From: a virus
IMG/VR virus record: IMGVR_UViG_3300020439_000003
Coordinates: 45,555-109,554 of that record
Strand: one strand, 5' to 3'
DNA length: 64,000 nucleotides
Part shown: positions 10,832 through 27,900 of the stretch, piece by piece
Layout: the number at the start of each line of letters is the position of its first letter
Position numbering within the stretch: the first letter of the stretch is position 1
Notes under the pieces: generated by a model
The model's database searches: none
What the model was told of the DNA's origin: nothing
The model's input: only the letters and a program-made list of their open reading frames with translations
Made by a program: the position numbers and the translations under genes

Positions 10832-11439
10832 CGTTTAATCAATGGAATCTCAGTGCTCATTATGAAATTAGCAGATACAGTGATACGTTCACTATCCTCA
10901 CGTTGTGTGTCCACTTGGTGATGCAAATATGATGGGAAGATGAGTATATCACCTTCCTTACATTCAGGGAACCATGTATTAACCACTGGATAATGCTTAG
11001 AGAAGTATCCGAGGTGCATATTCTGATCTGGATTATAGAAGATGAACTTAGCATCTACCTCAGGATCATATTGTAAGAGGTATGCACAACTAAACGTGGT
11101 GTTATCTCCTCCACAATGTGTATGCACCTCCTGTGAATCACCCTTCTTATATACATTGATCCAACTTTCCGTCATTTCTATTCGCACGGTGGGTTTCCCA
11201 CCCAGTTGCTCATGCATATCATCTAAATTAGGACGTATTGCCTTAGCAAACACGTCCCACGAGAAGTCTTCATTATTGGTATCACTCTCAAAGGAGGATT
11301 GCAGTGTGCAATTCCACTCCCTCGGTTGTGATGTATTAGCGAATGCTAATTCTGATAGAAGTAATCCTTTGAGATACTGGTGTGCTTCAACTTCACCATG
11401 ATAGTAGAACTTAGGAAATAAACCTTGAACTTTACCCAT
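10828..11439 (-). CDS. 2OG-Fe(II) oxygenase, HxH type
   Basis: SWINVY...QEVHTH...FPSYLHHQV...RITVSAN. Confidence 0.85.
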   Translation of the reverse strand: MGKVQGLFPKFYYHGEVEAHQYLKGLLLSELAFANTSQPREWNCTLQSSFESDTNNEDFSWDVFAKAIRPNLDDMHEQLGGKPTVRIEMTESWINVYKKGDSQEVHTHCGGDNTTFSCAYLLQYDPEVDAKFIFYNPDQNMHLGYFSKHYPVVNTWFPECKEGDILIFPSYLHHQVDTQREDSERITVSANFIMSTEIPLIKR

Positions 11440-12683
11440 TATGCAACAAGAGAGAGGGGAGGAATGCCTTTGACGAAGATAGCATCAACAACATTTTGTA
11501 GACGCTTGACAACGTGAGCACCATAAGTCTTGTGGACAGGGACAGTAACGAAACCAGTTGGTTTGTTGTACAATCCCCACTCACATGCATTGAGTTCACC
11601 AGACTTCAAACGTGCAGCATCATCTTTATCTAGGCGAATAACACGACCGATAGTCTGTGCCATCTCAACAACATTCAAGTTGCGAAGAAGGATGCAGTGA
11701 GTGAGACCAGGGACGTTGATACCTTCGCTGAGGATAGAATAGTGGAACACGATGAACTTCTTAGAAGCATCCTTACCCCACTCAGTGAGAGTATTGAAGA
11801 ATACTTCACGAGATACTTTCACACCGTCGATGATAGCACCAAACTTAGATGTGACGTGCATGACACTGTAACCACGCTCTGCAAGTTGAAGCAGGAGTGT
11901 AGTCTTAGAGATCATGTTACCTAGCACGCGACTGCTAGGGACAGCGACGAGAACTTTGCTGGCGTGAGTATCATCGAGATTGTCAATGATGTCACGCACA
12001 GTGTCAGCATCAACGTCATGAATGTTGTGCTTTGTGCGAGTGTTGTCTGTTTCAAAGGGAACGATAGTTGGAGGGAGGATGTGACCCTGCTCAATCAACT
12101 CAGGTGCAGGAACGTTACAAATAACAGGACCATACACGTCGCTGTTGTTCATGGAACGACCATGCTTGCGAGCGATACGAGGAGTAGCAGTGAAGAAGTA
12201 TGCACGCTCAGAGAGATCAGAACATGCAGCAGTAGCAGCAAAGAAGTGACGAGTCACACTGTTGTGAGACTCATCAAAGTATGCAGCATTGATCTCAATA
12301 CCAGCATCAACAACTTTGTTCAAAGAGTGATAGGTAGTGAAGATAATGCAAGACTCACCTGCTGCACGCGCAGTGTTAGCGAACAGTGCAATCTTGTCAG
12401 ACTTGGTGCTGCTGAAATGCTGTGTCTCACCTGAGTGAGCATGACATACATGTGTCCATGTAGATGAAATAAACTGCATGAACTCGTCACACAGTTGATT
12501 AGCGAGCAGGATACGAGGAGCAACAACAACAATAGTCTGGGGACCGTTGTTGAGCAGTTGACGAGCGTGCTCGATCATGATGATGGTTTTGCCACCACCA
12601 GTAGGCACGATGACCTGACCCTTGTCAGCGGACTGCATAGCAGCGAGAGCGCGGGACTGGTGAGGGCGTAGGGTGATGGTCAA
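11439..12683 (-). CDS. superfamily 2 (DEAD/DEAH, ResIII-like) helicase
   Basis: LRPHQ, PTGGGKT, DESH, TAT, LSEGINVP, QTIGRVIR. Confidence 0.9.
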   Translation of the reverse strand: MTITLRPHQSRALAAMQSADKGQVIVPTGGGKTIIMIEHARQLLNNGPQTIVVVAPRILLANQLCDEFMQFISSTWTHVCHAHSGETQHFSSTKSDKIALFANTARAAGESCIIFTTYHSLNKVVDAGIEINAAYFDESHNSVTRHFFAATAACSDLSERAYFFTATPRIARKHGRSMNNSDVYGPVICNVPAPELIEQGHILPPTIVPFETDNTRTKHNIHDVDADTVRDIIDNLDDTHASKVLVAVPSSRVLGNMISKTTLLLQLAERGYSVMHVTSKFGAIIDGVKVSREVFFNTLTEWGKDASKKFIVFHYSILSEGINVPGLTHCILLRNLNVVEMAQTIGRVIRLDKDDAARLKSGELNACEWGLYNKPTGFVTVPVHKTYGAHVVKRLQNVVDAIFVKGIPPLSLVA

Positions 12684-12706
12684 GGCGTGTCTGTGTCAGT
12701 ACATAT

Positions 12707-12763
12707 ATTATACATCACTCCTCGTCTTCCACCACCTCTTTGTGCCACTTCCTACACTGGACC
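12707..12763 (-). promoter_or_regulatory. early promoter with palindrome
   Basis: Palindrome at 12742-12763 (GTGCCACTTCCTACACTGGACC); -10 TATAAT at 12707-12712. Confidence 0.75.
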
Positions 12764-12848
12764 TTGTATTCATAATATGGATCAATCCTTGCTTGTCTCT
12801 CCCACTCTTCACATTTCAAAATCTCTTTATAGAGTTTGTCATCATACA

Positions 12849-13181
12849 TTAGCGTGCCTCCATGTCTGGTAACATTTCATTGCCTGGGTGGTCATTAGTC
12901 TTACCACGGTATGCTTTCTTATGTTGAAAGTATGCTGGATCTAATTCTAAATCATCCCAGTCTTCTTCAAATATAACAATACAGCATTTAATCCATGGTG
13001 ACAATGCATGTGGATCCTCGTTAGGTTTCTTACTTATACACAGTGTGATGTATTCATCACTAACAAATTCAATAGTTCCCTCAAAACCCTGATACCTAGC
13101 AGGACACCCAGGTTGTACTGCTTTGATGATGTTCCTGATCTCGATAGGAACTGACTCGGAAATAAAGAGGGGAGTGCTCAT
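12849..13181 (-). CDS. hypothetical protein
   Basis: 110-aa ORF, coupled to an oxygenase gene. Confidence 0.7.
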   Translation of the reverse strand: MSTPLFISESVPIEIRNIIKAVQPGCPARYQGFEGTIEFVSDEYITLCISKKPNEDPHALSPWIKCCIVIFEEDWDDLELDPAYFQHKKAYRGKTNDHPGNEMLPDMEAR

Positions 13182-13795
13182 AGTGTTAGAAACGAAGTTG
13201 GGTTGCCATAGTTACCTTTGACCATGACATTAAATGCTAGTGAGTAACGTCTATTGTGATCCATGTTTGCTTCAACACAATGGACTAACTCACTAGGGAA
13301 TATGAGTACCATGCCTGTCTGTGGTGTGATTCTCCACGACTTAGCATTATATACATTTGTAGCATCACGACGTGGGTCAAGGTGTCGATGGCGTTGATCC
13401 ATGAACATAATATCACCACAATTAGGATGTGTCCTCAGATACACCACACCACTATACAAACTGTTACGATGTGAATGATCGTTAGCACGTTCCATGTGTT
13501 GATGCATGTTAATCCATGAACATGTGAAGTCAGTAGTGTGTGATATTGCATCAACACCCTGCACACCAAATACATATTCATCAACGTGTTCTTTTAACCA
13601 CGACTTGAAATCTAGGAACTTGTCTAGTATCTGTTGTTCAACAGTTTGAGCACCTAGATTATATCCTGATCTATCGTAGTTTCTAAATTCCAACTCATCA
13701 ACAGCATCCATGATGTTGGGCATCTCCTCATCAACTGTCACATATATTGGTGATGAGAACAGAGGGATAATCTCAGTCGGTAGTGAAGTTTGCAT
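13178..13795 (-). CDS. 2OG-Fe(II) oxygenase, HxH type
   Basis: LFSSPI...NDHSHRNSLYSGVVY...FPSELVHCV...RYSLAFN. Confidence 0.9.
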   Translation of the reverse strand: MQTSLPTEIIPLFSSPIYVTVDEEMPNIMDAVDELEFRNYDRSGYNLGAQTVEQQILDKFLDFKSWLKEHVDEYVFGVQGVDAISHTTDFTCSWINMHQHMERANDHSHRNSLYSGVVYLRTHPNCGDIMFMDQRHRHLDPRRDATNVYNAKSWRITPQTGMVLIFPSELVHCVEANMDHNRRYSLAFNVMVKGNYGNPTSFLTL

Positions 13796-14270
13796 TGATT
13801 AGAATTCTGTTCTTATGATATTTTGGTGAGTGTCCAGTATGCATGTGTTGACCATTAAATGTCAATAGTCTGTTTGCCTTTGGTTGTACCCGTTGAAAAC
13901 GACTGTCGGAAGGATCGCCAAGGATAATAGTATCTCCATCTGAATCATTAACATAGTAGATACACACACGATGAGGTTCTTTGCAATCAGTGTGAAAGTC
14001 ATGTCTGTATCCCTCTGGGTTATATAACGTCATATCTGCACGCACACGAAGACATGCAGAAGACCTAATAGTCTCCTGCATCTTCGCAACTAACTCACAG
14101 AACTGTGGATCACCTTCATCACTCAACCAGTGATTAAATCCATGTGCTTGTATATCATCACACCCATTGGTGAGAGTTTGTTGGTAGAACCAAGGAAACT
14201 CCCACCCAGTGAGTATAGATAACAGTTCTGCATGATAGTCATCATCAAGGAAGTTATCGATGATGTTCAT
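13773..14270 (-). CDS. 2OG-Fe(II) oxygenase, HxD type
   Basis: IIDNFL...FHTD...YYVNDSDGDT...HMHTG...RILIN. Confidence 0.85.
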   Translation of the reverse strand: MNIIDNFLDDDYHAELLSILTGWEFPWFYQQTLTNGCDDIQAHGFNHWLSDEGDPQFCELVAKMQETIRSSACLRVRADMTLYNPEGYRHDFHTDCKEPHRVCIYYVNDSDGDTIILGDPSDSRFQRVQPKANRLLTFNGQHMHTGHSPKYHKNRILINANFTTD

Positions 14271-14448
14271 CTCTGAGATGTAAGGAGGTCGCAATTTCAT
14301 CAATTAGATTCCTTTTATGATCTGGAAGGTGACCAATCTTGTTGTAATAGTCTTTTTGAAGTAGGAATAGTGCGTGGCGCAGAAGCACCTTCTGCTCTGG
14401 ATTTAGTGTTGCAGTTTTAAGAAACATGGTCATAGGTGCAGAGACCAC
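14254..14448 (-). CDS. small hypothetical protein
   Basis: 64-aa ORF inside the oxygenase run; TAAATA immediately upstream. Confidence 0.55.
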   Translation of the reverse strand: MVSAPMTMFLKTATLNPEQKVLLRHALFLLQKDYYNKIGHLPDHKRNLIDEIATSLHLRDEHHR

Positions 14449-14454
14449 TACTAT

Positions 14455-15162
14455 TTAACGGTGGACCACTAAATTATAGCGTTTCCTGTCAGAACAGCAA
14501 CACCTTTTAGGGGTCCAAATTGGAAGAGATAATGAAAGTCTCGGTCCTTTGGTGTGTCGGGTGTTGTGGTATGCCCTTGCAGGAAAGTATAGCACATCCC
14601 CAGGCGTAAGTAAAGTGTCTATTGCTATTGTCAACTCATCCTCACTTGGTGTGTAGGGAGGATCTTCTCCTTCAATAAGATGTGATGCTCGTTCGTTATA
14701 TACTTGCCACCTCGTTTCTCCATCCATTTGTATGATGAAGTTGACGGGTTTGTCCCAGTGTGGTTTGAAACTTGGGTGCGAATTGTCAGCGCCATTAGTA
14801 ATAAAAATGTGACAGTCAGCACATCCATCAAAGGTCTCTTCAATCTTTGACAGTAACTCATCAACTTGTGGTTTACCATGACCATATTTACATATGTTAA
14901 TAGTATAACCCATATTAGCAAGTTCAAAGAGTTCTTGCTTCTTTGGTACACCCATATAAAACCATGGTTCTTCCACCTGTTCCAGATCCATACGTCTACC
15001 ATTATCATCAATCACTGTGATAACGTGATTCCATGGAGCATTCAGGGCATCTTCGGCATCTTGCCATGTAACAAATGGTTCAATAGCATTGCGCCACACT
15101 CGTGGACGATCGTCTGCCTGATATACCTCAGGATTGAGAAACTCTGGGTTTGAAATTAACAT
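14455..15162 (-). CDS. JmjC/cupin-4 (YcfD/ROXA-like) hydroxylase
   Basis: FKPHWD..NFIIQMDGETRW...LTPGDVLYFPARAYH...RLSLS. Confidence 0.85.
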   Translation of the reverse strand: MLISNPEFLNPEVYQADDRPRVWRNAIEPFVTWQDAEDALNAPWNHVITVIDDNGRRMDLEQVEEPWFYMGVPKKQELFELANMGYTINICKYGHGKPQVDELLSKIEETFDGCADCHIFITNGADNSHPSFKPHWDKPVNFIIQMDGETRWQVYNERASHLIEGEDPPYTPSEDELTIAIDTLLTPGDVLYFPARAYHNTRHTKGPRLSLSLPIWTPKRCCCSDRKRYNLVVHR

Positions 15163-15691
15163 TGAGTGCAATCCTATATCCTGTGGTGGGTGATGATGAT
15201 GCATGTAATACATCACCTTTGAATACAACCATCTTGCCACGCTCAGGTGACACTCTCAACTGACATTGACGTTGAAATATACTCATCTCATCAGTGAAGA
15301 AGATAGTATCACCATCACTATCATTCACATAATATAATGCAGTGATGTGTTCTTCTTCAAAGTCTACATGTGGACAGTGATGTTCTAGTTTGTCAGGTAG
15401 TAGGCAACCAAGGCGAACGCGATAAACATCAGAAAAATCTTGACCAGCAGCATCAGCAATAATCCTCAAAGCAGATTCAAATAGATCGTAGTATTGTGAG
15501 ACAGGTTCATAGTCCATCACCACAACATGTGAGAATGAACTGTTATCAAACCTACCTTCATATGGTCGATACCCACCATCAGCAAACGTGGTCTCTTTAA
15601 CAAGATACCATGGGAACTGTTGTTGTGTTACAAGTCCCTCAATCTGATCCTGAATAATATCAGGCAATGGATAATCAGAACTCAATAACAT
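15128..15691 (-). CDS. 2OG-Fe(II) oxygenase, HxD type
   Basis: CPHVD...YYVNDSDGDT...VLHAS...RIALN. Confidence 0.85.
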   Translation of the reverse strand: MLLSSDYPLPDIIQDQIEGLVTQQQFPWYLVKETTFADGGYRPYEGRFDNSSFSHVVVMDYEPVSQYYDLFESALRIIADAAGQDFSDVYRVRLGCLLPDKLEHHCPHVDFEEEHITALYYVNDSDGDTIFFTDEMSIFQRQCQLRVSPERGKMVVFKGDVLHASSSPTTGYRIALNVNFKPRVSQS

Positions 15692-16379
15692 ATTGCTTAC
15701 GGTCGCTGGGTACATCACGGGGATACATGCAAGGGATAGACATTGATAGACGCTTACCACCAGGGAATGGTTTGTGATACGTTCTAGCAGGGATGTACAT
15801 AACATCTCCCTCCTGTAATACTGTATCCAGAGCGATAGTTAGTTCCTGACCTGCCTTGTCTGGTAGATAAGGTTCGTCTGTCATTTCGATCAGACCACTA
15901 CATCTCTCCTCGTATACATTCCAGTGTGTTTCACCTTCAATCTGACAAATAAAGTTAGGTGGTAGATCCCAGTGAGCACCAAATGACTTGCTGCCCTCCT
16001 TAGCACTACCAAATATATGTGCGTCACAATTACAATCAAACATCGCTTCAATGTTCTCCAACAGATTATCTACTGCTGGATTGTAATGACCATACTGTTC
16101 AATGATAAATGTATGACCTTCATTGATTGCTTGGAATAGTTCTTCCTTGTGTGCCACACCTTGTTCATACCATACTTCAAATTTCTCAGGTAGCATCAAT
16201 CGACGACCCTCAAAGTTGAGGATCTGGGTTCTATAATACCATGGATTATTAAAACAGTGTGTGACTGTATCCCAGTTGACATACTGTGAGAGATTATCTA
16301 ATGCCTTACGCCATACCTTTGGTTTATCACCACACACAAACTCCTTAGGATTGAGGAATGGTAGTATCAATTTATTCAT
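15675..16379 (-). CDS. JmjC/cupin-4 (YcfD/ROXA-like) hydroxylase
   Basis: FGAHWD..NFICQIEGETHW...LQEGDVMYIPARTYH...RLSMS. Confidence 0.85.
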   Translation of the reverse strand: MNKLILPFLNPKEFVCGDKPKVWRKALDNLSQYVNWDTVTHCFNNPWYYRTQILNFEGRRLMLPEKFEVWYEQGVAHKEELFQAINEGHTFIIEQYGHYNPAVDNLLENIEAMFDCNCDAHIFGSAKEGSKSFGAHWDLPPNFICQIEGETHWNVYEERCSGLIEMTDEPYLPDKAGQELTIALDTVLQEGDVMYIPARTYHKPFPGGKRLSMSIPCMYPRDVPSDRKQYVIEF

Positions 16380-17037
16380 GTAAATCACCCTCAGATTGGT
16401 CAATAGAACAACCTGCTACATTGATACTAATAGCAATACGTTCACCTACTGCTGGTTGTGTGCGATGCTTCAACCATGATGGGAAGATGAAGTAATCAAA
16501 TGATTTTGAAGGTTGTGTGTTCCACTTCAAATCACTACCACAATGTGTTCCATCGTCAGAAATATCATAGTCAAATTCTAGTGGTGTCATGCGAAGAATA
16601 TCTTCCAGAGGATTCTTGAATTGAAGATGACCATGCTCTGGATCTTTCTGCAAGTGATAAACAATACTCACATGTGATTTACTACGTTGACCACTGATGT
16701 GACAATGTTCTCCTGTTGTATCACCATCGTTATGCAAATTTGCCCACATACTATCAATGTAGACATGCAAATCTCTCCTATAATTTAGTGTCCACTTCCA
16801 ATACTCATGAGCAGCAACCATCACTGGATGTAGCATCCAGTCAAACTCTTCATGGTCAAATAGTTCTTTACCACCTAACAATCCACCAGTAGACTTACCG
16901 TCTTCTAGTGCCCATGAACCACGAGTAGTTTTCGACCAGTATTCATCGTAGAGTAATCTCTTAGTTGCTTCTAACTGCTCGGGGGTTGGTTCTATGCTGC
17001 CACGACAGATAGGAGTATCAAATAGTCTGCTTAGCAT
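16372..17037 (-). CDS. 2OG-Fe(II) oxygenase, HxH type
   Basis: MWANL...GEHCH...FPSWLKHRT...RIAISIN. Confidence 0.85.
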   Translation of the reverse strand: MLSRLFDTPICRGSIEPTPEQLEATKRLLYDEYWSKTTRGSWALEDGKSTGGLLGGKELFDHEEFDWMLHPVMVAAHEYWKWTLNYRRDLHVYIDSMWANLHNDGDTTGEHCHISGQRSKSHVSIVYHLQKDPEHGHLQFKNPLEDILRMTPLEFDYDISDDGTHCGSDLKWNTQPSKSFDYFIFPSWLKHRTQPAVGERIAISINVAGCSIDQSEGDLHE

Positions 17038-17695
17038 TCTTCCTAATAGTATTGTACAAGTTTTCCTTGTTTCTCACTGGTACGAAATTAAATGAGATAC
17101 TAATTCTATCATCCTCTGTCTGATTGTCTCGCACAGCATGAGGAACCCATGCAGGAAATAAGAATAGTCTACCAGCAAGTGGTGGATATTCATATGTAGT
17201 ATCAGTATGTGGCACTGCTGCGGTAGACATATCCTCAGCAATACCAAGAGAATGGATTAGATAACCCTCAGTATGATCCTTATAGAATACTAACTTACCA
17301 CACTCACCCTCTGGTACTTTGACATAAAAGACACCAGACATCACAGCACCAGGATGTACATGGACCTCGTTATATCCTCCATGTCCATTGATGTTCATCC
17401 AGACATTTGCATACTCAATATGTGACATCTCTGCCCCATATGTACCAAATGCTATCTCTGCATTCTTTTTAATAACATACAGCAGTTTCTTAAACTCATC
17501 ACCTTCAAGTGATTCGTCATTCAATATCTGCTCACCCAAATAATCGGGAGACTGATAGTTCAGTTCTCCACGATTACTACGGTATTGACCTTCATTATTG
17601 TTCGCAATATCGAGAACAATATCAGTCATTGCATTGACATCAATATCTAGATCAGTCCACCACACAGGCGTGGGGAAAATATAATCAAGATTCAT
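17018..17695 (-). CDS. 2OG-Fe(II) oxygenase, HxH type (TIGR02466-like)
   Basis: IFPTPV...NEVHVHPGAVMSGVFY...FPAWVPHAV...RISISFN. Confidence 0.9.
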   Translation of the reverse strand: MNLDYIFPTPVWWTDLDIDVNAMTDIVLDIANNNEGQYRSNRGELNYQSPDYLGEQILNDESLEGDEFKKLLYVIKKNAEIAFGTYGAEMSHIEYANVWMNINGHGGYNEVHVHPGAVMSGVFYVKVPEGECGKLVFYKDHTEGYLIHSLGIAEDMSTAAVPHTDTTYEYPPLAGRLFLFPAWVPHAVRDNQTEDDRISISFNFVPVRNKENLYNTIRKNAKQTI

Positions 17696-18174
17696 TACTT
17701 AGTCTTATTCAGTTCTTCGTCAGTTGCTGCTTGATTGCTCTCCCAGTTACTAAACTTGGAGTAATCCTTACCTTTCTTACTGTAAGGAGAGTTGGTCTTA
17801 ACTTTGACCAACTTACGCTTCTCTTGGATCTCACTTTCAATCCAAGGTTCAGGATCAACACCCATGACAAACTGACGGTAGAGGTTAAGTGTTTCCAGTC
17901 CACCTTCCAGTTTCACAATCTCATCACGAAGTGCATTCATTTGAGTGAAGTCAACACGAGTCTCTTCTCTATCAAATGACATTGCACTCAATGCTTCTTG
18001 GAGTTTAGAATACTCATTGTATTTCTCACGATGTTGATACATCAGGTTACGCCAGAGATCATCAAAAGACTTGACTGCTTCCTTTGCAGATTCAACTTCT
18101 TCGATGAGTTCGGGCGGAAGGTCCACTTCAAGTGCTTCTTCTAGCACTTCTTGTGATACATTTTCCTCAGACAT
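17695..18174 (-). CDS. acidic coiled-coil hypothetical protein
   Basis: MSEENVSQEVLEE...; lies between the halogenase and the oxygenase run. Confidence 0.7.
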   Translation of the reverse strand: MSEENVSQEVLEEALEVDLPPELIEEVESAKEAVKSFDDLWRNLMYQHREKYNEYSKLQEALSAMSFDREETRVDFTQMNALRDEIVKLEGGLETLNLYRQFVMGVDPEPWIESEIQEKRKLVKVKTNSPYSKKGKDYSKFSNWESNQAATDEELNKTK

Positions 18175-18176
18175 AA

Positions 18177-19766
18177 TCATTCCTTGTAAATAGTGTTCTT
18201 TTGGAACTGGTAGGACGACGGTAAAGTCATACACCAATCATACATCTCTTTGTCCCATTCGTCAAACCTCAGTTCTGCTGTTAGTAGTTCTTCGGCATCG
18301 ACTCGCGGATCGAGACTGTTCTGTAACCTTTTCAGGGTCAACGTGTGATTATTTAGTGGGTTGAATCCCATGCCTGCTGCAATATACCTCAACCCATCAT
18401 TGTGTGCTGGATCACCAGCAAACTCATAGAGCACATGCTTCTCGGATGCATATCTCATGAAGAGATTATCAAGGGCACCAGTAGAGAAATCATAATCTAT
18501 TTCATTAGAAACATACTGCCAGTATTCTGTCTCTCTATTAGAGAAAGCATAATGGGCAGCAATGAAGTTTTTGAATCCTTCAATCTCTAAATCGTTGACT
18601 ATATTTAGCATGTCAACTTCTACCCTAGGAACGAATCCTTGACGCCCTGAGAGGTTATTACATAGGCGTATGATCTGTTCATGGGTAACAAGCAGTCCCG
18701 TCGCTTCTAGGGGTTCTACGAAGCAGTTAGAGAGACCAACTGCACATACATTCTTGACCCATGATTTCTCATGTTTACCATTTCTAAATGGTACATGGTT
18801 GAATGATGCTTTATCAGCACGTTCTTTACCTCTGGTCTTAATCAGATAGTTATACAGTTGATGTTCTGCCTCACCCTTAGTTGCAAACCCAGATGAGTAT
18901 ACATATCCAACACCAGATCTCTCCCACAGTGGTACATCCCACACCCAACCATTATCAATGGCAGTGCAATTTGTACTGTTAGTAATCTCTGTCTCCTTAT
19001 CTACATGTGGCATGTGACATGTCACAGCACTATCATTAAGAAGGCAACCACCACCATCTTTGTGGAATGAAACAAAATCTTGCTTCATGAATCCACCAAG
19101 TAAGAGTGATTTGAATCCAGTACAATCAATATACAGATCATACTCAAACTCACGATCATCGTCAGTGATTAGTTTAGTAATATATCCTTGACTGTCTTTC
19201 TCACAACGAGCAATGTTACCTTGATGATAATCAAGACCCAAAGGTAGACACCAGTTGTTCTTCAACCACTGACCAAACTTAATGGCATCCATGTGGTATG
19301 CAGTGTCTGCTTCAAAGTGAAACCTAGGGTCATCAGTTAGTTTATTATGATGCGCCAGTTGTCCCACTAAGTTGTGAAGACGTGCGAATGATTGTCTTGG
19401 ATACTTCTCTGGATTCTGTAAATTAAGAGAGAACCATGACATCCACCCATGTGGACATAGTTCTAGTCTCTCTTGTGCAGATCCAAAAGGATAATCCCAG
19501 GTCTCTCCTTCCTTATAGAAATCATTGAACCTGATATTAGTTTTATATGTGGATCCAGTATCTTTCATCCACATATGATCTTCTAAACCAAGAATGGCAA
19601 AGAAGTCATTGATCTGACCCAAAGTAGATTCACCTACACCAATAACAGGGTAGTCTGGTGATTCAATCAGTGAAGTTTTAATATGTGGGCAAAGTTTCAA
19701 AAGGGCGGCAGCGGTCATCCAACCAGCAGTGCCGCCCCCCACGATGAGGACATTACGAATTTGCAT
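18177..19766 (-). CDS. flavin-dependent halogenase, tryptophan halogenase (PrnA) family
   Basis: GGGTAGW, IGVGEST, catalytic-position Lys in TYKTNIRF, IDCTGF, GWVWDVP (WxWxIP-like), FVEPLEATG. Confidence 0.9.
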   Translation of the reverse strand: MQIRNVLIVGGGTAGWMTAAALLKLCPHIKTSLIESPDYPVIGVGESTLGQINDFFAILGLEDHMWMKDTGSTYKTNIRFNDFYKEGETWDYPFGSAQERLELCPHGWMSWFSLNLQNPEKYPRQSFARLHNLVGQLAHHNKLTDDPRFHFEADTAYHMDAIKFGQWLKNNWCLPLGLDYHQGNIARCEKDSQGYITKLITDDDREFEYDLYIDCTGFKSLLLGGFMKQDFVSFHKDGGGCLLNDSAVTCHMPHVDKETEITNSTNCTAIDNGWVWDVPLWERSGVGYVYSSGFATKGEAEHQLYNYLIKTRGKERADKASFNHVPFRNGKHEKSWVKNVCAVGLSNCFVEPLEATGLLVTHEQIIRLCNNLSGRQGFVPRVEVDMLNIVNDLEIEGFKNFIAAHYAFSNRETEYWQYVSNEIDYDFSTGALDNLFMRYASEKHVLYEFAGDPAHNDGLRYIAAGMGFNPLNNHTLTLKRLQNSLDPRVDAEELLTAELRFDEWDKEMYDWCMTLPSSYQFQKNTIYKE

Positions 19767-19769
19767 AAA

Positions 19770-20378
19770 TTAGTCTTCTCTGACTGTCTCAGGATGTTCA
19801 GTTACTGCTTCACCTAGTTCGGGGTTAGTATCTACTGCTTCGGCAGATGCAGGGGCAGTAGTAACAGGTTGATCTGCCATAGTTTCAGCGGCAGGTGCAT
19901 CATGAAGATCAGGGTTGTATGCACCAACCTTGAACTCTTTCTGTGCTTCCACAGGAATCTCAAACTCAGTCAACCATGAAGGAATCTCTTCACTATGAGG
20001 GAAGGGTTCGTTAGGCAGAACTTTGTTACCTTCTTCATCATATTCAACCTCAGGGAGTTCAGTCTTCACACCAGCAATGTGCTTGAAGAATTCACCACCC
20101 TTAGCAGCATCGCCGAAGAGTCCTGCTTCAATATCTTTATACAACTTGGACAGTTGCATACCAGGATCACCATATGCAACGATACGGAGAGTCTCAGGAT
20201 CATGGAATTCAAAGTCAGGAATCCACTCACCAAGTTCAAGTTTCCAGTCGATAGTACCTTCGTCAGGAATATCGATCCATCTCAAACCAGAACCAGGTCC
20301 AGTGTAGACTTCAAACTCTTCACCTTCGTTGATGATGTCTGTAATAAATCCGTCTGCGCGGACAAGTGCTCTTTTCAT
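19770..20378 (-). CDS. putative tail-fibre-associated or assembly chaperone
   Basis: R..AY....QL..LYKDI..G......F...I..VK pattern seen downstream of fibre genes. Confidence 0.55.
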   Translation of the reverse strand: MKRALVRADGFITDIINEGEEFEVYTGPGSGLRWIDIPDEGTIDWKLELGEWIPDFEFHDPETLRIVAYGDPGMQLSKLYKDIEAGLFGDAAKGGEFFKHIAGVKTELPEVEYDEEGNKVLPNEPFPHSEEIPSWLTEFEIPVEAQKEFKVGAYNPDLHDAPAAETMADQPVTTAPASAEAVDTNPELGEAVTEHPETVRED

Positions 20379-20384
20379 TGTTCT

Positions 20385-21185
20385 TTAATCGAATTCGTAA
20401 ACGACAACAATACCCTGACGACCGTCGCCGCCACGTTCTCTGTTTCTAGCAGAAGAACCGCCAGCACCGTAAGCAGCATGACCTCTATGGCGCTGCGCCC
20501 ACTGTTGCTGTCTGTGAGAAGTTGGTGAAGAACCACCCCAGAAGGAGTGTCCACCATGACCGAGACCAGGAGGATTACGGTGACCCTGTGAAGAACCACC
20601 ATAGATTCTTACAGCACCCTGAGAGGGGTTACCACCAGTAGATCCATCATGTTGTTGTCTACGGTTGGCACCCTGTCCACCACCAGATGAACAGTAGTTA
20701 CCGAAACTTGATGTACCACCATTGCCACCACGTTGAGAATAGTTAGTACCACCACCTGCACCACCCACGGTCACAGAGATAGAGTTAATGTTCTGAACGT
20801 TGACAATCTGCTCAGTGTGTGCGCCAGCAGCACCAGATTCTCCATAACCTGATCCACCGCCACCACCAGCAGTACACATAACCCAGATACGTTTAATACC
20901 TGTGGGTTTGTTCCAAGTGGAGTTACTATTGTACACTGAGATAGACTTAGGTCCACCACCAGTTTGTACAGTTGCCCACGACATCGATGTGCCGTTGGTA
21001 GAGAGATACTTACCTGATTGTCCCGAGATAGATGGGATAACCTGAGAAGATGAACCACCGATAGTTCCATTGATTACGATGTTACTAACGGTAAGAGTAC
21101 CGTTCACAGTAATAGAACCAGAACTGAGGTTAAGTCCACCAGAACCAGATAGGTCTCTAATTGAAGATACTTTAAGGGTACTCAT
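20385..21185 (-). CDS. glycine-rich tail fibre/adhesin protein, paralog B
   Basis: MSTLKVSSIRD...GKYLSTNG...TWNKPTG...GGGGGSG...GIVVVYEF Gly-rich domain. Confidence 0.75.
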   Translation of the reverse strand: MSTLKVSSIRDLSGSGGLNLSSGSITVNGTLTVSNIVINGTIGGSSSQVIPSISGQSGKYLSTNGTSMSWATVQTGGGPKSISVYNSNSTWNKPTGIKRIWVMCTAGGGGGSGYGESGAAGAHTEQIVNVQNINSISVTVGGAGGGTNYSQRGGNGGTSSFGNYCSSGGGQGANRRQQHDGSTGGNPSQGAVRIYGGSSQGHRNPPGLGHGGHSFWGGSSPTSHRQQQWAQRHRGHAAYGAGGSSARNRERGGDGRQGIVVVYEFD

Positions 21186-21209
21186 TGATTACTAGGTCTC
21201 CTTCGTTGT

Positions 21210-21217
21210 TATTTATA
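21210..21217 (-). promoter_or_regulatory. T4-type late promoter
   Basis: TATAAATA followed by an AGGAG RBS. Confidence 0.75.
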
Positions 21218-22021
21218 TCAAATGAATTCGTAGACTACGATGATGCCTTGGCGTCCATCACCACCACGTTCTCTGTTACGACCTGAGGAACCACCAGCAC
21301 CATAGGCAGCATGTCCTCTGTGACGTTGTGCCCATTGCTGCTGTCTGTGTGCAGTTGGAGATGCACCGCCCCAGAATGATCCACCACCATGTCCTAGACC
21401 TGGGGGATTTCTGTGACCTTGACTTGACCCTCCATAAATTCTAACAGAACCTTGTGATGGGTTCCCGCCTGTGGATCCATCGTGCTGCTGTCTGCGATTT
21501 GCGCCTTGACCGCCGCCTGATGAGCAGTAGTTACCAAATGATGACGTTCCACCATTGCCAGCGCGACCACTGTAATTAACACCACCACCACCGCCACCAA
21601 CTGTAACACTAATCGAGTTGATATTTGTGACATCTACAAAAGACTCCGTGTGAGCACCAGCAGCACCTGATTCACCATAACCTGAACCACCACCGCCACC
21701 AGCAGTACATTTAACCCAGATACGCTTAACTCCACTAGGTTTGTTCCAAGTGGAGTTACTATTGTATACCGAAATACTATTAGGAAGACCTAAGTTACCA
21801 CCACCTTGTTGCCAAGAGATAGTAGAACCATTGGTGTAAAGGAACTTACCGCCTTGACCCGACTGTGATGGAATAATATATCCAGAGGATCCAGTTACGT
21901 TTCCGTTAATAACAATATGAGTTACATTGAGAGTCCCGTTCGCAGTAATAGAACCACCAGAGAAGGACATACCCCCTTGGTTACCTAGATCTTTTACTTG
22001 TGCTACATTTAGTCGAGTCAT
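21218..22021 (-). CDS. glycine-rich tail fibre/adhesin protein, paralog A
   Basis: Same architecture as 20385-21185, with a near-identical C-terminal domain. Confidence 0.75.
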   Translation of the reverse strand: MTRLNVAQVKDLGNQGGMSFSGGSITANGTLNVTHIVINGNVTGSSGYIIPSQSGQGGKFLYTNGSTISWQQGGGNLGLPNSISVYNSNSTWNKPSGVKRIWVKCTAGGGGGSGYGESGAAGAHTESFVDVTNINSISVTVGGGGGGVNYSGRAGNGGTSSFGNYCSSGGGQGANRRQQHDGSTGGNPSQGSVRIYGGSSQGHRNPPGLGHGGGSFWGGASPTAHRQQQWAQRHRGHAAYGAGGSSGRNRERGGDGRQGIIVVYEFI

Positions 22022-22761
22022 TGTTGTTGATCTAACTCTTTTCTTTTATTTAGTTGTTCAGCACCTACATGTTGAAGTGGAACAACCCTGAACGCATACT
22101 TACCATTATCTAGGATCTCGGGAATAAAGTTCATACTAATAGTAGTACGTCCCTTCCAGAGATTGAAGACACCTTCATAACCATGCACAGTCTCTGCTGA
22201 CCATATAAACAGACAACCTTCTTGTGGTTTGGTCTGGTGAACTTCCTTTGTATATTTATTACCCTCGTTTGCTATACGAGGTGATCTCATCTGTTGAATA
22301 ACTGGATGTCCCTCTTTCTGAGGTACACGATAGAAATCCAAAGGTGAATGAATCTTGGGATCAAAGTCAACAAAATATGTACCAACGATGATACAGTTGT
22401 TGTGATTGTGTTTGATCTGCCAACAATGCTCTTTCGAGCAATGATTCAACCAACAGTCAGTAATCAATAGATTAGATCCATTGAGTTCATATTCTAACAC
22501 ATCAGTGAAGTAGTCAGTCGCTGCGTCTAACAGAAACTTCTCAAAGTCTTTGAATCGATCATCATAACGTAAAAGATTACTATTAGAGATATTAAAGTAA
22601 TGGTGCAGATTCTCCTCTGCTACATTACTATTCCACTCAGGATGCCCTGGTTGTATCTCATCAATGATCTTATGACATACTTCCTTGATAACCTCATTGT
22701 CGCCATCATAATAATACTTCCCAAAGACTTGTGGGAAGTATTCTTCAAGTTCACGTTTCAT
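22018..22761 (-). CDS. 2OG-Fe(II) oxygenase, HxH type, embedded among fibre genes
   Basis: CWLN...IKHNHNN...WSAETVHGY...RTTISMN; ATGA-coupled on both sides. Confidence 0.8.
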   Translation of the reverse strand: MKRELEEYFPQVFGKYYYDGDNEVIKEVCHKIIDEIQPGHPEWNSNVAEENLHHYFNISNSNLLRYDDRFKDFEKFLLDAATDYFTDVLEYELNGSNLLITDCWLNHCSKEHCWQIKHNHNNCIIVGTYFVDFDPKIHSPLDFYRVPQKEGHPVIQQMRSPRIANEGNKYTKEVHQTKPQEGCLFIWSAETVHGYEGVFNLWKGRTTISMNFIPEILDNGKYAFRVVPLQHVGAEQLNKRKELDQQQ

Positions 22762-24011
22762 CTATTATGTTGATTAGTTGATAACAAATAGTAACTTCCG
22801 ATACTGTATGCACCACCGTCATTGAATCCGATGTTGCTAAGGTTTTTCAAGTTGTTTCTTGATCCACCGTACATATTTAGATAACCGCTGTCAGAGTAGT
22901 CACCGTTAGGTTCAGAGTGGGTGTTGTCTCTCAACCACCACTTTCCACCATCAGGTACACGCCACTCACCAACATTGTTACCACCATAGTCAGATGACCT
23001 CATAATACGAGAGGTGTAGTTACCTCCACCACCGTTCTTGAAGACAGCGCCACACCCAACAAAGAAGTTAGGCCAGTTACCTCCGTTGACGATTGTAGCA
23101 TAGTTAGCAGCAGCACGCCATGCATACTTGGAGCGACCATAGAACATATCAAGACCAAAGTCAACACCAGAGTGATACTGACCATTGTAATTCACACTAC
23201 GACCACCACCATTGATGGGATAGAAGTCATAACCACCACCATCCTCTGTGGTATCAACATACATTTGCAGTGCGTTGGGCATACTGTGTGACTGGATCCA
23301 GTATGTTCCATTGCTATTGCAGTGTCCATATTCTACACCAAACTTACCAGATTCAAGTGGAGAACTAGGTGAACTACCATTACCAAAGTTTAGTTCAGAT
23401 GCATTAACAATCTCTAACTTAGCATGGGAGATATAATATGCTTCGTCGCCTCTACTTTGGTTCAGTCCAGTATAGTGTTCAATACTAATACTATTAGAGG
23501 TATGTTGTCTCCAACCAGATGAAAACTTAATATACCCCATTGATGAGTCATTAGAACCGTTCCATGGTTCATAACTATAATCAACGTTGAAACGTGCTAA
23601 CAATACAGGAGAAGTTTCAGACTGGTTATGGTCACAGTTCATCTCTCTGAATCTGTTCTCATTCCAGATCTTACGCCAGTTAGCAATACGATTGCCATCA
23701 ATGTTGACGTATTGATACTCATTATCCCATGAGTCAACATGGTGAATAACACACGAATACTTAATGTATTGGTGTGATGGTAATCCACTCAGGTTGAGTG
23801 TATAGGATCTAGGAGATCCACCCCAACCGTGCCAATATCCTGTGCTAGAAAACTCAGGACGTGCGTACATACTGGAATACTCACTACGATTCCAGTTAGA
23901 GAGATAGTTACGACAGTCGTTTCCTTCGTCGTACCAAACTTCTCGTTGAGCAAAACCTCCGCCACCACCGCCGCCGATAGTAGCAATTTTAGCGAGTCCA
24001 ATACTAGGCAT
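22758..24011 (-). CDS. putative receptor-binding protein with fibrinogen-like and C-type-lectin-like motifs
   Basis: GTYWI...MYVDTTEDGGGY (YCDxxxxGGGW-like); W..PDGG.W......EPNGDY. Confidence 0.6.
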   Translation of the reverse strand: MPSIGLAKIATIGGGGGGGFAQREVWYDEGNDCRNYLSNWNRSEYSSMYARPEFSSTGYWHGWGGSPRSYTLNLSGLPSHQYIKYSCVIHHVDSWDNEYQYVNIDGNRIANWRKIWNENRFREMNCDHNQSETSPVLLARFNVDYSYEPWNGSNDSSMGYIKFSSGWRQHTSNSISIEHYTGLNQSRGDEAYYISHAKLEIVNASELNFGNGSSPSSPLESGKFGVEYGHCNSNGTYWIQSHSMPNALQMYVDTTEDGGGYDFYPINGGGRSVNYNGQYHSGVDFGLDMFYGRSKYAWRAAANYATIVNGGNWPNFFVGCGAVFKNGGGGNYTSRIMRSSDYGGNNVGEWRVPDGGKWWLRDNTHSEPNGDYSDSGYLNMYGGSRNNLKNLSNIGFNDGGAYSIGSYYLLSTNQHNR

Positions 24012-24013
24012 AA

Positions 24014-24880
24014 TTAGTCGTTATCTTCAAATCCTTGTGGGTTCAAGAACACTCTCCATGTAGCACCATCTAGGTAGAAGAAGAAGTTCAAGAGATCATA
24101 TCCATTACCAGGCGAGTATCCACCGTTTAATGTAGCAGTCTGACCGTTGATTTGTACACCATTGAGGTTACCAGACGTAGCAGTTGCTTGTCTAATTAGA
24201 ACCTGTGCAACATACATAAAACCAGCAATGTTAGGGACATTCTGGAAATTCAATGTAAAGTTGTTAGTATATGTAGTGGGATTTTGAGTTTCAAAGATTT
24301 GTGCCTGTGAATGATCCAAAGCAACTGTACTTGACAGTGCGAAAGAAATCATTCTTTCCTTGGTTTGACCAAACTCAAAGGTCGAACCAGCAACCATTCT
24401 CAGATGGTTGTTAACAGCAGCGTAGTTGAAATATCTATATGCTGAGAGATCTTCGTCAACACCAATCAGTGTCCACGTTGCATTATTCTCAATAGTAACA
24501 GTACGACCGTTAGCAATAGTAATAGGAGCAGCAGAGAAACCGTTGCTAAACTCTATACCATTGTTAGCACTTGGACCAATAGTTAAGTTTTCATTGATAG
24601 TAGTACCGTTAGTTCTGATAATAGAATCCTCACCAACAGATGGTCCACCACCACCAACATCGTCCCAACCAGGAGAACCAGGACCGTTGACATCAGGGAG
24701 ATAACCCTGAATCATTTTCTCAGTTTCGTTATATACAATCGTACCGAGAGCAACAGTGCCTAGTGCATTGATTTCAGTCTGGTTGAGATTAGGCAAGTTG
24801 ATCTGCTCTGTGACAGTCAGGGCGGTGATGATCGCCCTTGTCGCATCGCTAATCTGATTACCTATAATTTTTGTGGACAT
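24014..24880 (-). CDS. virion structural / fibre connector protein
   Basis: GTIVYNET...W..VGGGGPS.G.DSIIRTN..TI.EN.TI...TIANG.TVTI, motifs common in cyanophage fibre proteins. Confidence 0.7.
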   Translation of the reverse strand: MSTKIIGNQISDATRAIITALTVTEQINLPNLNQTEINALGTVALGTIVYNETEKMIQGYLPDVNGPGSPGWDDVGGGGPSVGEDSIIRTNGTTINENLTIGPSANNGIEFSNGFSAAPITIANGRTVTIENNATWTLIGVDEDLSAYRYFNYAAVNNHLRMVAGSTFEFGQTKERMISFALSSTVALDHSQAQIFETQNPTTYTNNFTLNFQNVPNIAGFMYVAQVLIRQATATSGNLNGVQINGQTATLNGGYSPGNGYDLLNFFFYLDGATWRVFLNPQGFEDND

Positions 24881-24900: not shown

Positions 24901-27900
24901 TTAGATAACAAGTTCACGAATTTGAATCACGTCACCTGTGGCAGGAATAGTCGCGCCACCAATAGAGAAGTCAACAGCATTACCAGTTACGGTGTAGTCA
25001 ACACCAGGGACTTGACATACACCATTCAAGAATACAAGTACAGAGTATGCAGTATGACCAGGAGAGATTGCAAAGGTAACAGTAGAACCGTTGCCATTGT
25101 AAGTGATACCATTGTTACCACTACTTAAACCTGTCGCTAATCTATATTTATCTGCACAACCATACTTTCCTGATACGTCAATGTCACCATTAAAGTAGGT
25201 GTTACCACTAACCTTCAATCGGTTAGAGGCATCAGGTGCCATACCAATACCATAATTAGTGACACCAGAATAGCGTTGGGATGTAATCGGAGCAGTATCA
25301 CTCAGACCCATCTTATACCATGTACCAGCATCATATACCCAACCAAGTGATTGACCAGGGGTCCAATCAATGTTATAGCAGATGTCTCCACTGTTAAATG
25401 CAAGACCAGCATCAAGATCAGGGAGTCCAGCAACTTCTTCTGCGAGGAAAGTCTGTTTCAGAACAGTACCATCATCGTTAGAATAAGTAAACTTCAACGA
25501 CTGGATCTCATCCTGTGATGTCAGTTTCTTCTGCATGGTCACAGGACCAGAGAATACTGACTCCAACTGGTTAGATGCACCACCAATCACGGTGAGTTTA
25601 TCAGTCAGCACCAACTCAGAGAACGTCTCAATAGTTGTACCTTCCTCACCCAACACATTCAACTGTGCAATATCTTCGTTAGTGATCTGACCCGTAACAG
25701 GGTTAATCACCTGGTTACCCACGAAGAGTTCACCATCACTGTTCACACCAGAGTAGTATGCAACACCTGCTGCTTCTTTGAGTGACTGTGATAGTCTAAC
25801 CTGTTCAGGTTTGAGCACTTCCACCTGGGTAGATGGGAATGCAGTTGAATAGTTACCAGGACCGAAACCAAGATACTCAAACGTGTGACCAGATGCTCTA
25901 AGAATAGAGTATCTTCTCAGTTCGATTGAGAGAGGAGCAACAGAGTTATCAGGGTTAAGTTGGAGAGGAATCTTTCTCTCTTCCTCATCACCCAGACGTG
26001 CAGTCACAACAATACCAGTCAATGTGTTCGTGGTAGTAGTGTAACCTAGGTTGTTCTCAGTTTCTTGTAGGAAGAACTGTGCTGTCTCCTTAGTAATAGA
26101 CAACTGAGTGTCTTCATTGGGAGTAGGAGTTGCACCATCAGTAGTTCTAACCAGACCCAGAGTCTCGTTATCTGCCACAGATACAGATGCAGCGGGGTCA
26201 GCAACAGGATTGTCTCTGTCAAATGCAGGGTAGATGTCTACTGTCTGCTGTGAGAATTCAAAGTCATTGAAGTTCTGTGCAGCAGGAGATACAGATGCAG
26301 AAAGCATCGTGAGATAGTAGATACCATCAGCAACACCACGCTCAAATGTTTGGAACGTCTCTACATCATAGATGTAGTATGTCTTACTATATGATGGTGA
26401 GTTAGTTTCAGACGATCTTGGTTGCATAACGAAACCAGTGATCGGAGGACGAGGAACAGGGAATGCATCCTTGTCCAATACATATCTGAAACGATAGGTT
26501 CTGTCATTCAAGTCACGAGCATCAGGGATACGACGGATGAACGTAGTAGGTGTAAATCCGAGGTTCTGATACAGCGAGTTCGCTTGAAGTGTGGTGTAGA
26601 TAGTGTTAGCAGCACTGTCTACTTGCAGATACCACTGACTACGATTACTATCCCATTTCAGTGGGTTGTCATCATCACCTGCTCTTGTACCAGTAACGGT
26701 AGGACCAGAGGGTGAAATGTTTGCGTAGTGAGTAGTTGGGTCGGACGCGCCAGACGCGACGAGTGAAACGTAGATCTTATCAGGAGTATTGACATCATCG
26801 CGTCTTGCGCCAATAGTATAACCCTGGATCTTACTGGGCGGTCTACCTGCTTCGGAAGTATATCCATACAGATAGAGTCTAGAAGCATCTGCTTCTGCCT
26901 TTGTAGTTGTAATATCAATAGTCACCCAGTTAATGGAGATCTCTTCTACATCTGATAGAGACTTGGGTGGGATGATGTGAGTAATTTGCCCTGCTTTGTC
27001 CTTGGTAAATGACGCAGCTTTGAACCCTTTGGATCGTAGGGATGTGTTACCGAAGTTTGAGTTAGAGTTCGTGATAGAGAGGTCACCACCACTGTCGGAG
27101 AAGAAGTGGTCACCGAATCCCACGGCGAACACTGACACAACCTGGATAAAAGAGTCATTGGATGCTTTAATATGAACGTGTCGCCATCCACGTCTATACT
27201 CTGCTAGACCGTTGATGTGAGCACCTGAACCTGCCGCTTGTGGTTCATATTGTCCAGTCGATTGGTTATATACAACGAATGCACGGTCATCCTTTTGTAG
27301 GGAGATACCCGTGAACTGTGCAACCACCATCGATTTGAAACCAGTTGCCTGGGAACCATCGGCGTGCATACCATTGATACCCCATACAGAACGTAGGGAG
27401 CAGTTGAACACATATGGTGAGGCAGAGTCAACGGTATCAATCTCAACCTTCACGAGGATGTTTGAACCAATAGCATTACCGCTAGGTTCAGATGACATTT
27501 GATAGGTGAATTGGTTACCCTGTGCTGAGGTTACCAAGAACGATCCATTATAGAGTAGTTGATCCTGCTCAGTAGGACCAGTAACGCCAGATATATTAAC
27601 AGCGACACCCACGGAGAATCCGTGATTCTTCGGGTTGCCAAGTTCATCCACCGTAAATGCCGTGGCAGTTTGTCCATTACGGATAATCTGAGATACAGCA
27701 AATTCGTCAGAAATAGGACCAACGATCCTGTTTTCTTCGATTCTTGCCTGCAACTGGTCTTGTGCAACAACGCCAGAAGAGTCAGGAATAGTAGCGTATG
27801 CTTTCGAGATCTTCTGATAGTAGAGACTCAGATCTTCGGGGTTAGCATACTCAAAGCAAGTAATCTTGTGGTGAGAGAAGTTAGGTGCAATAGTAGCGAT

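Follow-up and report, generated by a model that had tools for sequence, protein, structure and literature searches.

Gene content of the locus

The stretch of DNA analysed here, referred to below as the window, comprises 64,000 nucleotides (positions 45,555 to 109,554) of the IMG/VR virus record IMGVR_UViG_3300020439_000003 and forms the right-hand 64 kb of a 109.5-kb fragment of a marine T4-like cyanomyovirus. Between positions 24880 and 13178 it carries a run of genes for fibre-associated proteins, a flavin-dependent halogenase and a row of oxygenases. The initial annotation, made from the letters of the sequence, had read this run as a tailoring cluster whose substrate is the virion itself, the fibres being halogenated and hydroxylated by the enzymes encoded next to them. 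Our analysis bears out the anatomy of this proposal and the link of the halogenase with the fibre and chaperone-like genes. The part that assigns the oxygenase battery to fibre tailoring is weak and has no support beyond adjacency.

Among isolates, S-WAM1, P-RSM6 and S-SZBM1 come closest; the nucleotide identity to S-WAM1 is 78% over part of the region. All three carry the same genes in the same order as the run in the window, and all these genes have been annotated already. The region represents a module conserved in T4-like cyanophages, in the version of the S-WAM1/P-RSM6 lineage, and corresponds to Syn9 gp34-gp54. It is ordinary for its phage lineage, and the gene array itself was published in 2010 and is not new.

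We checked the run by open reading frame (ORF) calls and by scans against Pfam, NCBIfam and PHROG. Every gene between 24880 and 13178 lies on the minus strand, as do all genes of the run given below, and the genes are tightly packed, so that the co-directional run described initially was reproduced. The junctions between genes are gaps of 2-32 nt or overlaps. Two apparent gaps (14303-14455 and 12683-12849) are occupied by small ORFs on the same strand, one of 64 codons at 14254-14448 and one of 44 codons at 12714-12848. The run is thus packed almost without non-coding DNA.

The fibre and chaperone-like proteins

Two Gly-rich proteins are encoded in tandem, paralog A with 267 amino acids (21218-22021) and paralog B with 266 amino acids (20385-21185). 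They are 79% identical, and the pair matches PF21722 (Gly_rich_2) at 38 and 34 bits. The AlphaFold2 (AF2) model of paralog B, based on 18 homologues, reaches a predicted local distance difference test score (pLDDT) of only 69. With Foldseek the model nevertheless matches the Pam3 tail fibre gp24 (7ypx_A) with E = 1e-6 and a template modelling score of 0.52-0.55, which points to a TNF-like plus glycine-rich fold. Other Foldseek matches are tail-tip chains of mycobacteriophage Bxb1 and the glycine-rich domain of ALK/LTK. Pam3 gp24 is a receptor-binding fibre with TNF-like plus Gly-rich domains and forms a proven fibre-chaperone pair with gp25, the product of the next gene, which has an N-terminal beta-sandwich and a C-terminal helical domain (PMC9608196). 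The label of a Gly-rich fibre gains support from this match, and on the basis of the model we regard the predicted fibre identity as well supported.

Behind paralog B follows a gene (19770-20378) for a protein of 202 amino acids which belongs to phrog_1787, a group of unknown function, and to no Pfam family. It had been labelled chaperone-like, and this identity is plausible. As in Pam3 a small gene follows the fibre gene, and the protein shares the beta-then-helix layout of gp25. The fold match itself, however, is weak for Pam3 gp25 (VIA Z 4.2, root mean square deviation 3.2 over 53 residues with 23% identity; Foldseek E = 0.13) and likewise for the Mu chaperone Tfa (Z 2.6). Searches of the PDB by sequence, one with the Gly-rich protein and one with a profile of the chaperone-like protein, gave no match. 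Unlike in Pam3, the fibre gene is duplicated here and the chaperone-like protein bears a tail with a conserved tryptophan; Pam3 itself has neither a halogenase nor a row of oxygenases.

In the chaperone-like protein a conserved N-terminal domain (residues 1 to about 110) is followed by a C-terminal tail. The invariant tryptophan of this tail, Trp135, belongs in the window to the motif I-P-S-W (codon 19974-19976). Such a tail, 29-116 amino acids long and with an invariant tryptophan in the motif (M/I)-P-(A/S/C)-W, is present in each of the 40 distinct copies of the protein that stand before a halogenase. No tail is present in the six homologues which are not followed by a halogenase (S-RIM2, Syn33, P-RSM1, S-H25, S-RIM4 and S-B64); here the profile match ends at about residue 109. 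All six fall into a second Gly_rich_2 fibre subfamily ('gp38' in Syn33), which is found in halogenase-free phages, so that the tail tracks both the fibre subfamily and the halogenase.

The halogenase

The next gene (18177-19766) encodes a flavin-dependent halogenase of 529 amino acids (PF04820 at 312 bits). It is a full-length homologue of VirX1 from cyanophage Syn10 (PDB 6qgm), with 371 bits over residues 2-527 and about 39% identity. The motif GxGxxG that binds flavin adenine dinucleotide reads GGGTAG (residues 10-15), the catalytic lysine lies in T-Y-K at 73-75, aligned with the identical tripeptide in VirX1, the WxWxIP motif is WVWDVP (274-279) and the glutamate motif FxEPxExxG is FVEPLEATG (349-357). 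All four elements are shared with VirX1, the third in the form WxWx(I/V)P. The gene is intact and of the VirX1 type, and its product is a predicted halogenase. The assignment to the PrnA family thus stands as far as the Trp_halogenase family and its motifs are concerned, with VirX1 as the closest type. Of those ORFs of the window that were scanned, none was identified as a flavin reductase gene.

Halogenases of the prnA type have reportedly been noted in cyanophages since 2005, and the structure of VirX1 is said to have been solved in 2019. The halogenases and 2-oxoglutarate (2OG) oxygenases of cyanophages rank with the most common auxiliary genes that ocean viruses carry, and we know of no natural substrate for any of them. 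The trimeric VirX1 has an active site that is unusually large and open, it prefers iodide, and no natural substrate of it is known (PMC8407142).

The halogenase gene is followed by a gene for a small helical acidic protein (17695-18237) that belongs to no family in Pfam, PHROG or NCBIfam and is the counterpart of Syn9 gp44 (32% identity). Its likely start is the ATG at 18180, which overlaps the stop codon of the halogenase (ATGA).

The contig MT835646.1 ('Bacteriophage sp.', from a faecal sample), which has two halogenase-like ORFs and could have served as an independent test from a gut phage, was dropped. It resembles a fragment of high-GC bacterial DNA, with long ORFs that overlap on both strands, and is probably not of phage origin.

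The oxygenase row

Behind the small helical protein the seven oxygenases of the initial annotation were confirmed with the metal motifs as claimed, namely three TIGR02466 proteins with HxH, two HxD proteins and two JmjC proteins. Their order is Oxy_5, Oxy_5, JmjC_2, Oxy_3, JmjC_2, Oxy_3, Oxy_5. The row begins with a TIGR02466/Oxy_5 oxygenase-like protein at 17018-17695 (HVH...H; Pfam 83.5 bits, NCBIfam 102 bits) and a second, fast-evolving one at 16372-17037 (HCH...H; Pfam 36.8 bits). Then follow a short MINA/NO66-like JmjC oxygenase at 15675-16403 (HWD...H; PF08007 at 60.6 bits), the counterpart of Syn9 gp49, and a prolyl-hydroxylase-like 2OG-FeII_Oxy_3 oxygenase at 15128-15805 (HVD...H; Pfam 31.6 bits; phrog_274). 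The second short JmjC oxygenase at 14455-15240 (HWD...H; PF08007 at 64.4 bits) is patchy and found only in some relatives. The Oxy_3-type oxygenase at 13773-14303 (HTD...H) reaches 26.2 bits, just under the Pfam cut-off of 27 bits for PF13640 (Oxy_3), and 157 bits with phrog_274. The last gene of the run is again of the TIGR02466/Oxy_5 type (13178-13795; HSH...H; Pfam 73.3 bits, NCBIfam 79.6 bits).

The oxygenase genes do not end at 13178 as had been assumed. Beyond the UvsW-like helicase two further oxygenase-like genes with a double-stranded beta-helix (DSBH) fold lie on the minus strand at 10828-11439 (Oxy_5) and 10301-10831 (phrog_274), and others are found at 8307-8894, 4508-5137 and 36270-36875. 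In total the window has 13 DSBH oxygenase-like genes, and the remaining 45 kb of the contig have none. The Oxy_3 genes have the triad HxD...H, that is, HVD at 15128-15805 and HTD at both 13773-14303 and 10301-10831, each with the distal histidine.

An additional TIGR02466/2OG-FeII_Oxy_5 protein (22018-22761; HNH...H; Pfam 34.6 bits, also matched by NCBIfam) is encoded amid the structural genes. It forms the second half of a two-gene cassette together with a structural protein of 417 amino acids rich in W, Y, N and G (22758-24011), which matches phrog_15727 'virion structural protein' with 3.7e-122. Beyond 'virion protein' the label 'lectin-like' given to this partner found no support. Across the mapped relatives both genes are present or both are absent; the P-RSM6-like contig L015 lacks both. 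The slot of the cassette (22018-24011) holds unrelated genes in phages of the S-WAM1, S-SZBM1 and Syn9 types and is empty in L015.

The four TIGR02466/PF13759 genes of the run score above the Pfam cut-off (34.6-83.5 bits) and have the metal motif HxH...H and not HxD. Their PDB matches are 3bvc and 2rg4 only, two uncharacterised structural-genomics entries. Since the family has no characterised member, these proteins are only putative users of 2OG. The two JmjC proteins (242 and 261 amino acids) are closest to the ribosomal oxygenases NO66/MINA53 in the PDB (E about 3e-5). They end with the catalytic core and lack the C-terminal dimerisation and winged-helix domains of their PDB relatives, which have 341-489 amino acids and are matched over the core only. 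The JmjC protein at 15675-16403 is the best-conserved enzyme with 82-92% identity in relatives, against 47-57% for the adjacent Oxy_5 protein (16372-17037) and 68-80% for the halogenase; evolutionary rates are therefore very uneven inside the array.

The genes that RefSeq lists as 'DNA endonuclease V' in S-WAM1, P-RSM6 and Syn9 are members of phrog_274. They are of the Oxy_3 type with the triad H-x-D...H and do not match Pyr_excise, and the denV label looks like a propagated mis-annotation. We therefore reject a DNA-repair neighbourhood deduced from denV.

Conservation of the neighbourhood

The proteins of the window were mapped onto loci of relatives, eight from isolates and 43 from IMG/VR. 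Within the close lineage the genes keep one and the same order. The fibre of 1192 amino acids and a protein of 288 amino acids are followed by a variable slot, two Gly-rich proteins, the chaperone-like protein, one or two halogenases and the small helical protein, and then by Oxy_5, Oxy_5, JmjC, Oxy_3, the optional second JmjC, Oxy_3, Oxy_5 and the helicase. The small helical gene stands behind the halogenase in most relatives. All IMG/VR loci which match the Gly-rich profile and have enough downstream DNA show two to three Gly-rich genes, then the chaperone-like gene, one or two halogenases and at least four oxygenase counterparts. The order of fibre, chaperone-like protein and halogenase persists when identity falls to 30-45% and when the fibre genes upstream are of quite another kind.

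Among 50,697 phage records the Gly-rich subfamily is confined to ten cyanomyoviruses (S-WAM1, S-SZBM1, P-RSM6, P-TIM40, Syn9, Syn10, S-CREM1, Sf-FP1, Sf-CH3 and S-RIM44), and each of them has a VirX1-type halogenase 0.5-5 kb downstream. Two apparent exceptions could be resolved. Sf-FR1 has three diverged Gly-rich copies plus a chaperone-like gene, and in Sf-CH11 the 'GspG-domain' protein beside the halogenase is a Gly_rich_2 protein. The initial annotation had asked whether the enzyme set co-varies with the adjacent fibre type. The halogenase does track the Gly-rich subfamily, but the oxygenases are scattered and occur also in halogenase-free cyanophages. A strict rule that the Gly-rich fibre needs the halogenase is rejected, as the second Gly_rich_2 subfamily (Syn33 'gp38', S-RIM2, P-RSM1, S-RIM12 and others) is found in halogenase-free phages.

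The UvsW-like helicase is 68% identical to that of the window in S-BM3, 63.5% in Syn9 and about 59% in P-RSM6. In S-BM3 the fibre gene is followed by three small genes and then by the helicase; the Gly-rich proteins, the chaperone-like protein, the halogenase and the oxygenase row are all missing, and the whole genome has one 2OG gene. This absence, the cassette of structural protein and oxygenase, and the Trp tail suggest, as far as sequence comparison goes, that the neighbourhood reflects more than shared descent.

The tandem dioxygenase and tryptophan-halogenase neighbourhood of Syn9 and Syn10 (gp38-gp54) was described by Iyer, Abhiman, de Souza and Aravind (2010, NAR; PMC2938197). The window resembles Syn9 in its Gly-rich proteins (gp38/39), the small protein (gp40), the halogenase (gp41/42), the gp44-like protein and the unlike dioxygenases, among them the MINA/NO66-like JmjC protein gp49. 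It differs in that its lineage has one halogenase instead of two, two JmjC genes, and the extra cassette of structural protein and oxygenase. The dUTPase-fold protein with a conserved cysteine, Syn9 gp43, found no match by tblastn in the 109-kb contig, whereas gp44 has its counterpart.

Timing signals

A late promoter had been proposed before the last fibre gene. The T4-type late-promoter box TATAAATA is indeed present as an exact match at 21210-21217 (minus strand), 25 nt before the ATG of paralog B, and begins right after the stop codon of paralog A. A box at this spacing precedes 41 of the 78 homologous genes in relatives. The late-type box AATAAATA lies at 28504-28511, also 25 nt before the ATG, in front of the 1192-amino-acid fibre gene.

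As a criterion for late boxes we used NATAAATA at 17-42 nt before the start codon. By this criterion they precede seven structural genes in the window. In relatives the box is found before 18/32 genes for the 1192-amino-acid fibre, 52/100 Gly-rich genes and 9/42 chaperone-like genes, and further before 2/63 halogenase genes and 3/36 genes for the small helical protein. Only one of 253 oxygenase genes has such a box, and none of the 48 helicase genes and genes following it. The fibre and chaperone-like genes look late because late-type boxes mark them. A terminator scan gave nothing convincing between 21185 and 18177, in agreement with the initial annotation. Since the halogenase gene starts 3 nt behind the chaperone-like gene and no terminator intervenes, it is probably transcribed by read-through.

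For the oxygenase row the box counts give no positive timing signal either way. At a sensible distance before the oxygenase genes of the run we found neither sigma-70 promoters nor extended -10 promoters. Boxes resembling GTGTATTAT as a -10 element are seen from 12742 downwards and none inside the run (12849-24880). Between 5854 and 12742 an extended -10 box of the type GTGTATT(A/C) lies on the minus strand just before the gene start at five of the six sites examined. This suggests separate promoters for the helicase and the genes that follow.

Flanking structural genes

Upstream of the run lies the gene for the 1192-amino-acid tail fibre protein (24901-28479, minus strand; phrog_529 tail fibre, E = 0). 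The run itself opens with the 288-amino-acid virion protein (24014-24880; phrog_29506), the counterpart of Syn9 gp35. The term 'connector' proposed for it has no support beyond 'virion protein'. In the virion proteome of S-SZBM1 homologues of the 736-, 1192-, 444- and 288-amino-acid proteins were found, those of the fibre and of the 288-amino-acid protein being S-SZBM1_52 and S-SZBM1_51 (PMC9146016).

A CpeT-like gene and an Oxy_3 oxygenase gene (35795-36875) stand directly behind the gp5-like baseplate hub gene (33219-35795), so that auxiliary genes are inserted in the baseplate block too. Outside the window, at G000:C1:18588-39824, a single ORF of 7078 codons makes up one fifth of the contig; it is the counterpart of the giant 'baseplate wedge initiator' of S-SZBM1.

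Discussion

A functional link between the fibre and chaperone-like genes and the halogenase is supported by the comparison of sequences. The gene order is conserved down to 30-45% identity, the Trp tail accompanies the halogenase, the block is absent as a whole from S-BM3, and late boxes mark the fibre and chaperone-like genes and in two cases the halogenase itself. The downstream oxygenase row is tied to the fibres only loosely.

In this locus a fibre block marked by late promoters, with large fibre proteins, the two Gly-rich paralogs and the small chaperone-like protein, leads without break into the halogenase, the small helical protein and the row of unlike Fe(II) oxygenases. We suggest that the locus could work as follows. 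The halogenase would be transcribed late by read-through from the promoters of the fibre and chaperone-like genes. Its substrate might be a phage-made protein of the fibre assembly line. Such a substrate must already exist, because there is no scaffold-building enzyme in the array; Pfam detected no synthetase among the ORFs scanned. The leading candidate would be the invariant tryptophan in the (M/I)-P-(A/S/C)-W tail of the chaperone-like protein and the second the Gly-rich fibre which this protein presumably folds. Reduced flavin could be supplied by a host reductase. The cassette oxygenase (22018-22761) may in addition hydroxylate its structural-protein partner. That the halogenase acts on a phage-made protein of fibre assembly is a tentative proposal to which we give a little less than even confidence. 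The more specific version, in which iodine or bromine, both abundant in seawater, is placed on the chaperone tail tryptophan or on the Gly-rich fibre and some adjacent oxygenases hydroxylate the same proteins, we consider rather unlikely.

There are precedents for parts of this proposal. The collagen lysyl hydroxylase L230 of Mimivirus and the prolyl 4-hydroxylase of PBCV-1 modify virion or viral proteins, and MibH is a peptide-acting tryptophan halogenase which works on a ribosomal peptide. Unlike the Mimivirus case, no collagen-like repeats exist anywhere in the 109-kb contig, and unlike MibH the window halogenase scores nearer to the halogenases of free tryptophan (about 205 against 148 bits). 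To our knowledge there is no phage example of hydroxylation or halogenation of a viral protein. For bacterial operons, co-encoded tail-collar or collagen-like proteins were proposed as substrates of the neighbouring dioxygenases (PMC2938197).

Several observations weigh against a modification of the fibre assembly proteins. As far as we know, a modified residue has never been reported on any such phage protein. The co-variation of tail and halogenase is confounded with the fibre subfamily, and the tailed copies perhaps descend from few events. Synteny alone is weak evidence, because the gene order of T4-like phages is conservative. In the AF2 model the Trp135 region has a pLDDT of about 85, and for this reason the motif may be a packed structural or docking element and not a free substrate. 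The idea of a conserved tryptophan in the fibre loops is rejected. The window tryptophans in 'FW' and 'QQQW' vary in the family, the Sf-FR1 paralogs lack W70 and W91, and once the Sf-FR1 copies are included no invariant tryptophan is left in the Gly-rich fibres. Likewise, collagen-like (G-X-Y)n substrates for the prolyl-hydroxylase-like enzymes occur neither in the window nor in the rest of the contig. In the S-SZBM1 virion proteome (30 proteins, modifications not searched) the Gly-rich, chaperone-like and enzyme proteins were undetected (PMC9146016). Against the oxygenases as a fibre-tailoring set stand, besides the rarity of their late boxes, the continuation of the row past the UvsW-like helicase, the scatter of 2OG oxygenase genes, which are multi-copy whatever the halogenase or fibre type (about 10 in S-RIM2, 13 in S-B64 and 17 in S-WAM1, the first two lacking either a halogenase or this fibre type), and their varying number behind the same fibre/halogenase core, from about one in Sf-FR1 to nine in S-CREM1.

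A first alternative is the tailoring of a small molecule. The halogenase and the dioxygenases would successively modify an amino-acid-derived or other host metabolite, giving a secondary metabolite, a siderophore-like compound or a decoration of cell-surface sugars, and the adjacency to the fibres would be historical. This is the published reading of the Syn9 array, for which halogenated and hydroxylated secondary metabolites were proposed and the enzymes were not connected with the fibre genes (Iyer et al. 2010, PMC2938197), and in 2021 Iyer et al. likewise saw the cluster of S-SSM6a as serving capsule decoration or an antibiotic (PMC7824862). Also in line with it, and at the same time against a protein substrate, VirX1 accepts many small aromatic substrates in vitro (PMC8407142), and VirX1-type halogenases are found away from fibres, beside gp46/47 in S-B64 and S-H35 and behind gp32 in locus L025. 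Shorter relatives of the halogenase lie between the terminase genes (pelagiphage HTVC008M) or in a carbamoyltransferase cluster, and the distant halogenases of P-SSM2 and S-SSM7 sit beside carbamoyltransferases (PMC7824862). Bacterial neighbourhoods, moreover, join JmjC proteins, 2OG-Fe(II) dioxygenases and tryptophan halogenases with TonB receptors and peptide synthetases (PMC2938197). In and near the array of the window, however, there is no synthetase, carbamoyltransferase, methyltransferase or transporter, and the dUTPase-fold gp43 of Syn9 is missing. A small-molecule pathway also leaves unexplained why the Trp tail appears exactly where a halogenase follows and why fibre subfamily and halogenase occur together, and a lytic phage has little time to gain from an antibiotic-like product. 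In our view it is a doubtful explanation.

A second alternative is that the oxygenases serve the take-over of the host and have no tie to the fibres. They would act on host proteins or nucleic acids or repair DNA, or the conversion of 2-oxoglutarate to succinate would steer the nitrogen-stress signalling of the host, and the junction by the fibre block would be a place that tolerates insertions. MINA53/NO66/YcfD and prolyl hydroxylases hydroxylate ribosomal proteins or translation factors, and the JmjC proteins of the window are nearest to NO66/MINA53. The JmjC proteins lack, however, the C-terminal domains of YcfD/NO66. The scatter and the varying number of the 2OG genes, the extension of the 13 window oxygenases past the helicase and the near absence of late-type boxes, all named above, fit this explanation, and roles in 2OG/NtcA signalling and in DNA repair have been put forward (PMC3037559; PMC9146016). 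The 'denV' neighbours behind the DNA-repair argument are, as described, mislabelled oxygenases. Furthermore, almost every related locus, even at about 30% identity, has a core set of oxygenases behind its halogenase (the counterparts of 17018-17695, 16372-17037, 15675-16403 and 15128-15805). In S-BM3 the row is missing along with the fibre/halogenase block, and the oxygenase 22018-22761 shares its presence or absence with the structural protein of its cassette. We judge host take-over to be an equally doubtful account of the row.

A reading of the Trp tail as a precursor of a ribosomally synthesised and post-translationally modified peptide is dismissed, since no protease, cyclase or transporter family is present among the proteins of the run (Pfam, PHROG, NCBIfam) and the resemblance comes down to adjacency and the Trp motif.

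Should the idea of protein halogenation fail, the secondary-metabolite and host-takeover readings would gain weight. In either case the comparative pattern names concrete candidates which can be tested, the P-(A/S/C)-W tail of the chaperone-like protein and the Gly-rich fibre. If the idea is true, enzymatic post-translational halogenation would take place in the assembly of a virus particle and a viral halogenase would have its first natural substrate. Phages would then have protein halogenation as a further means of tuning their receptor-binding organelles.

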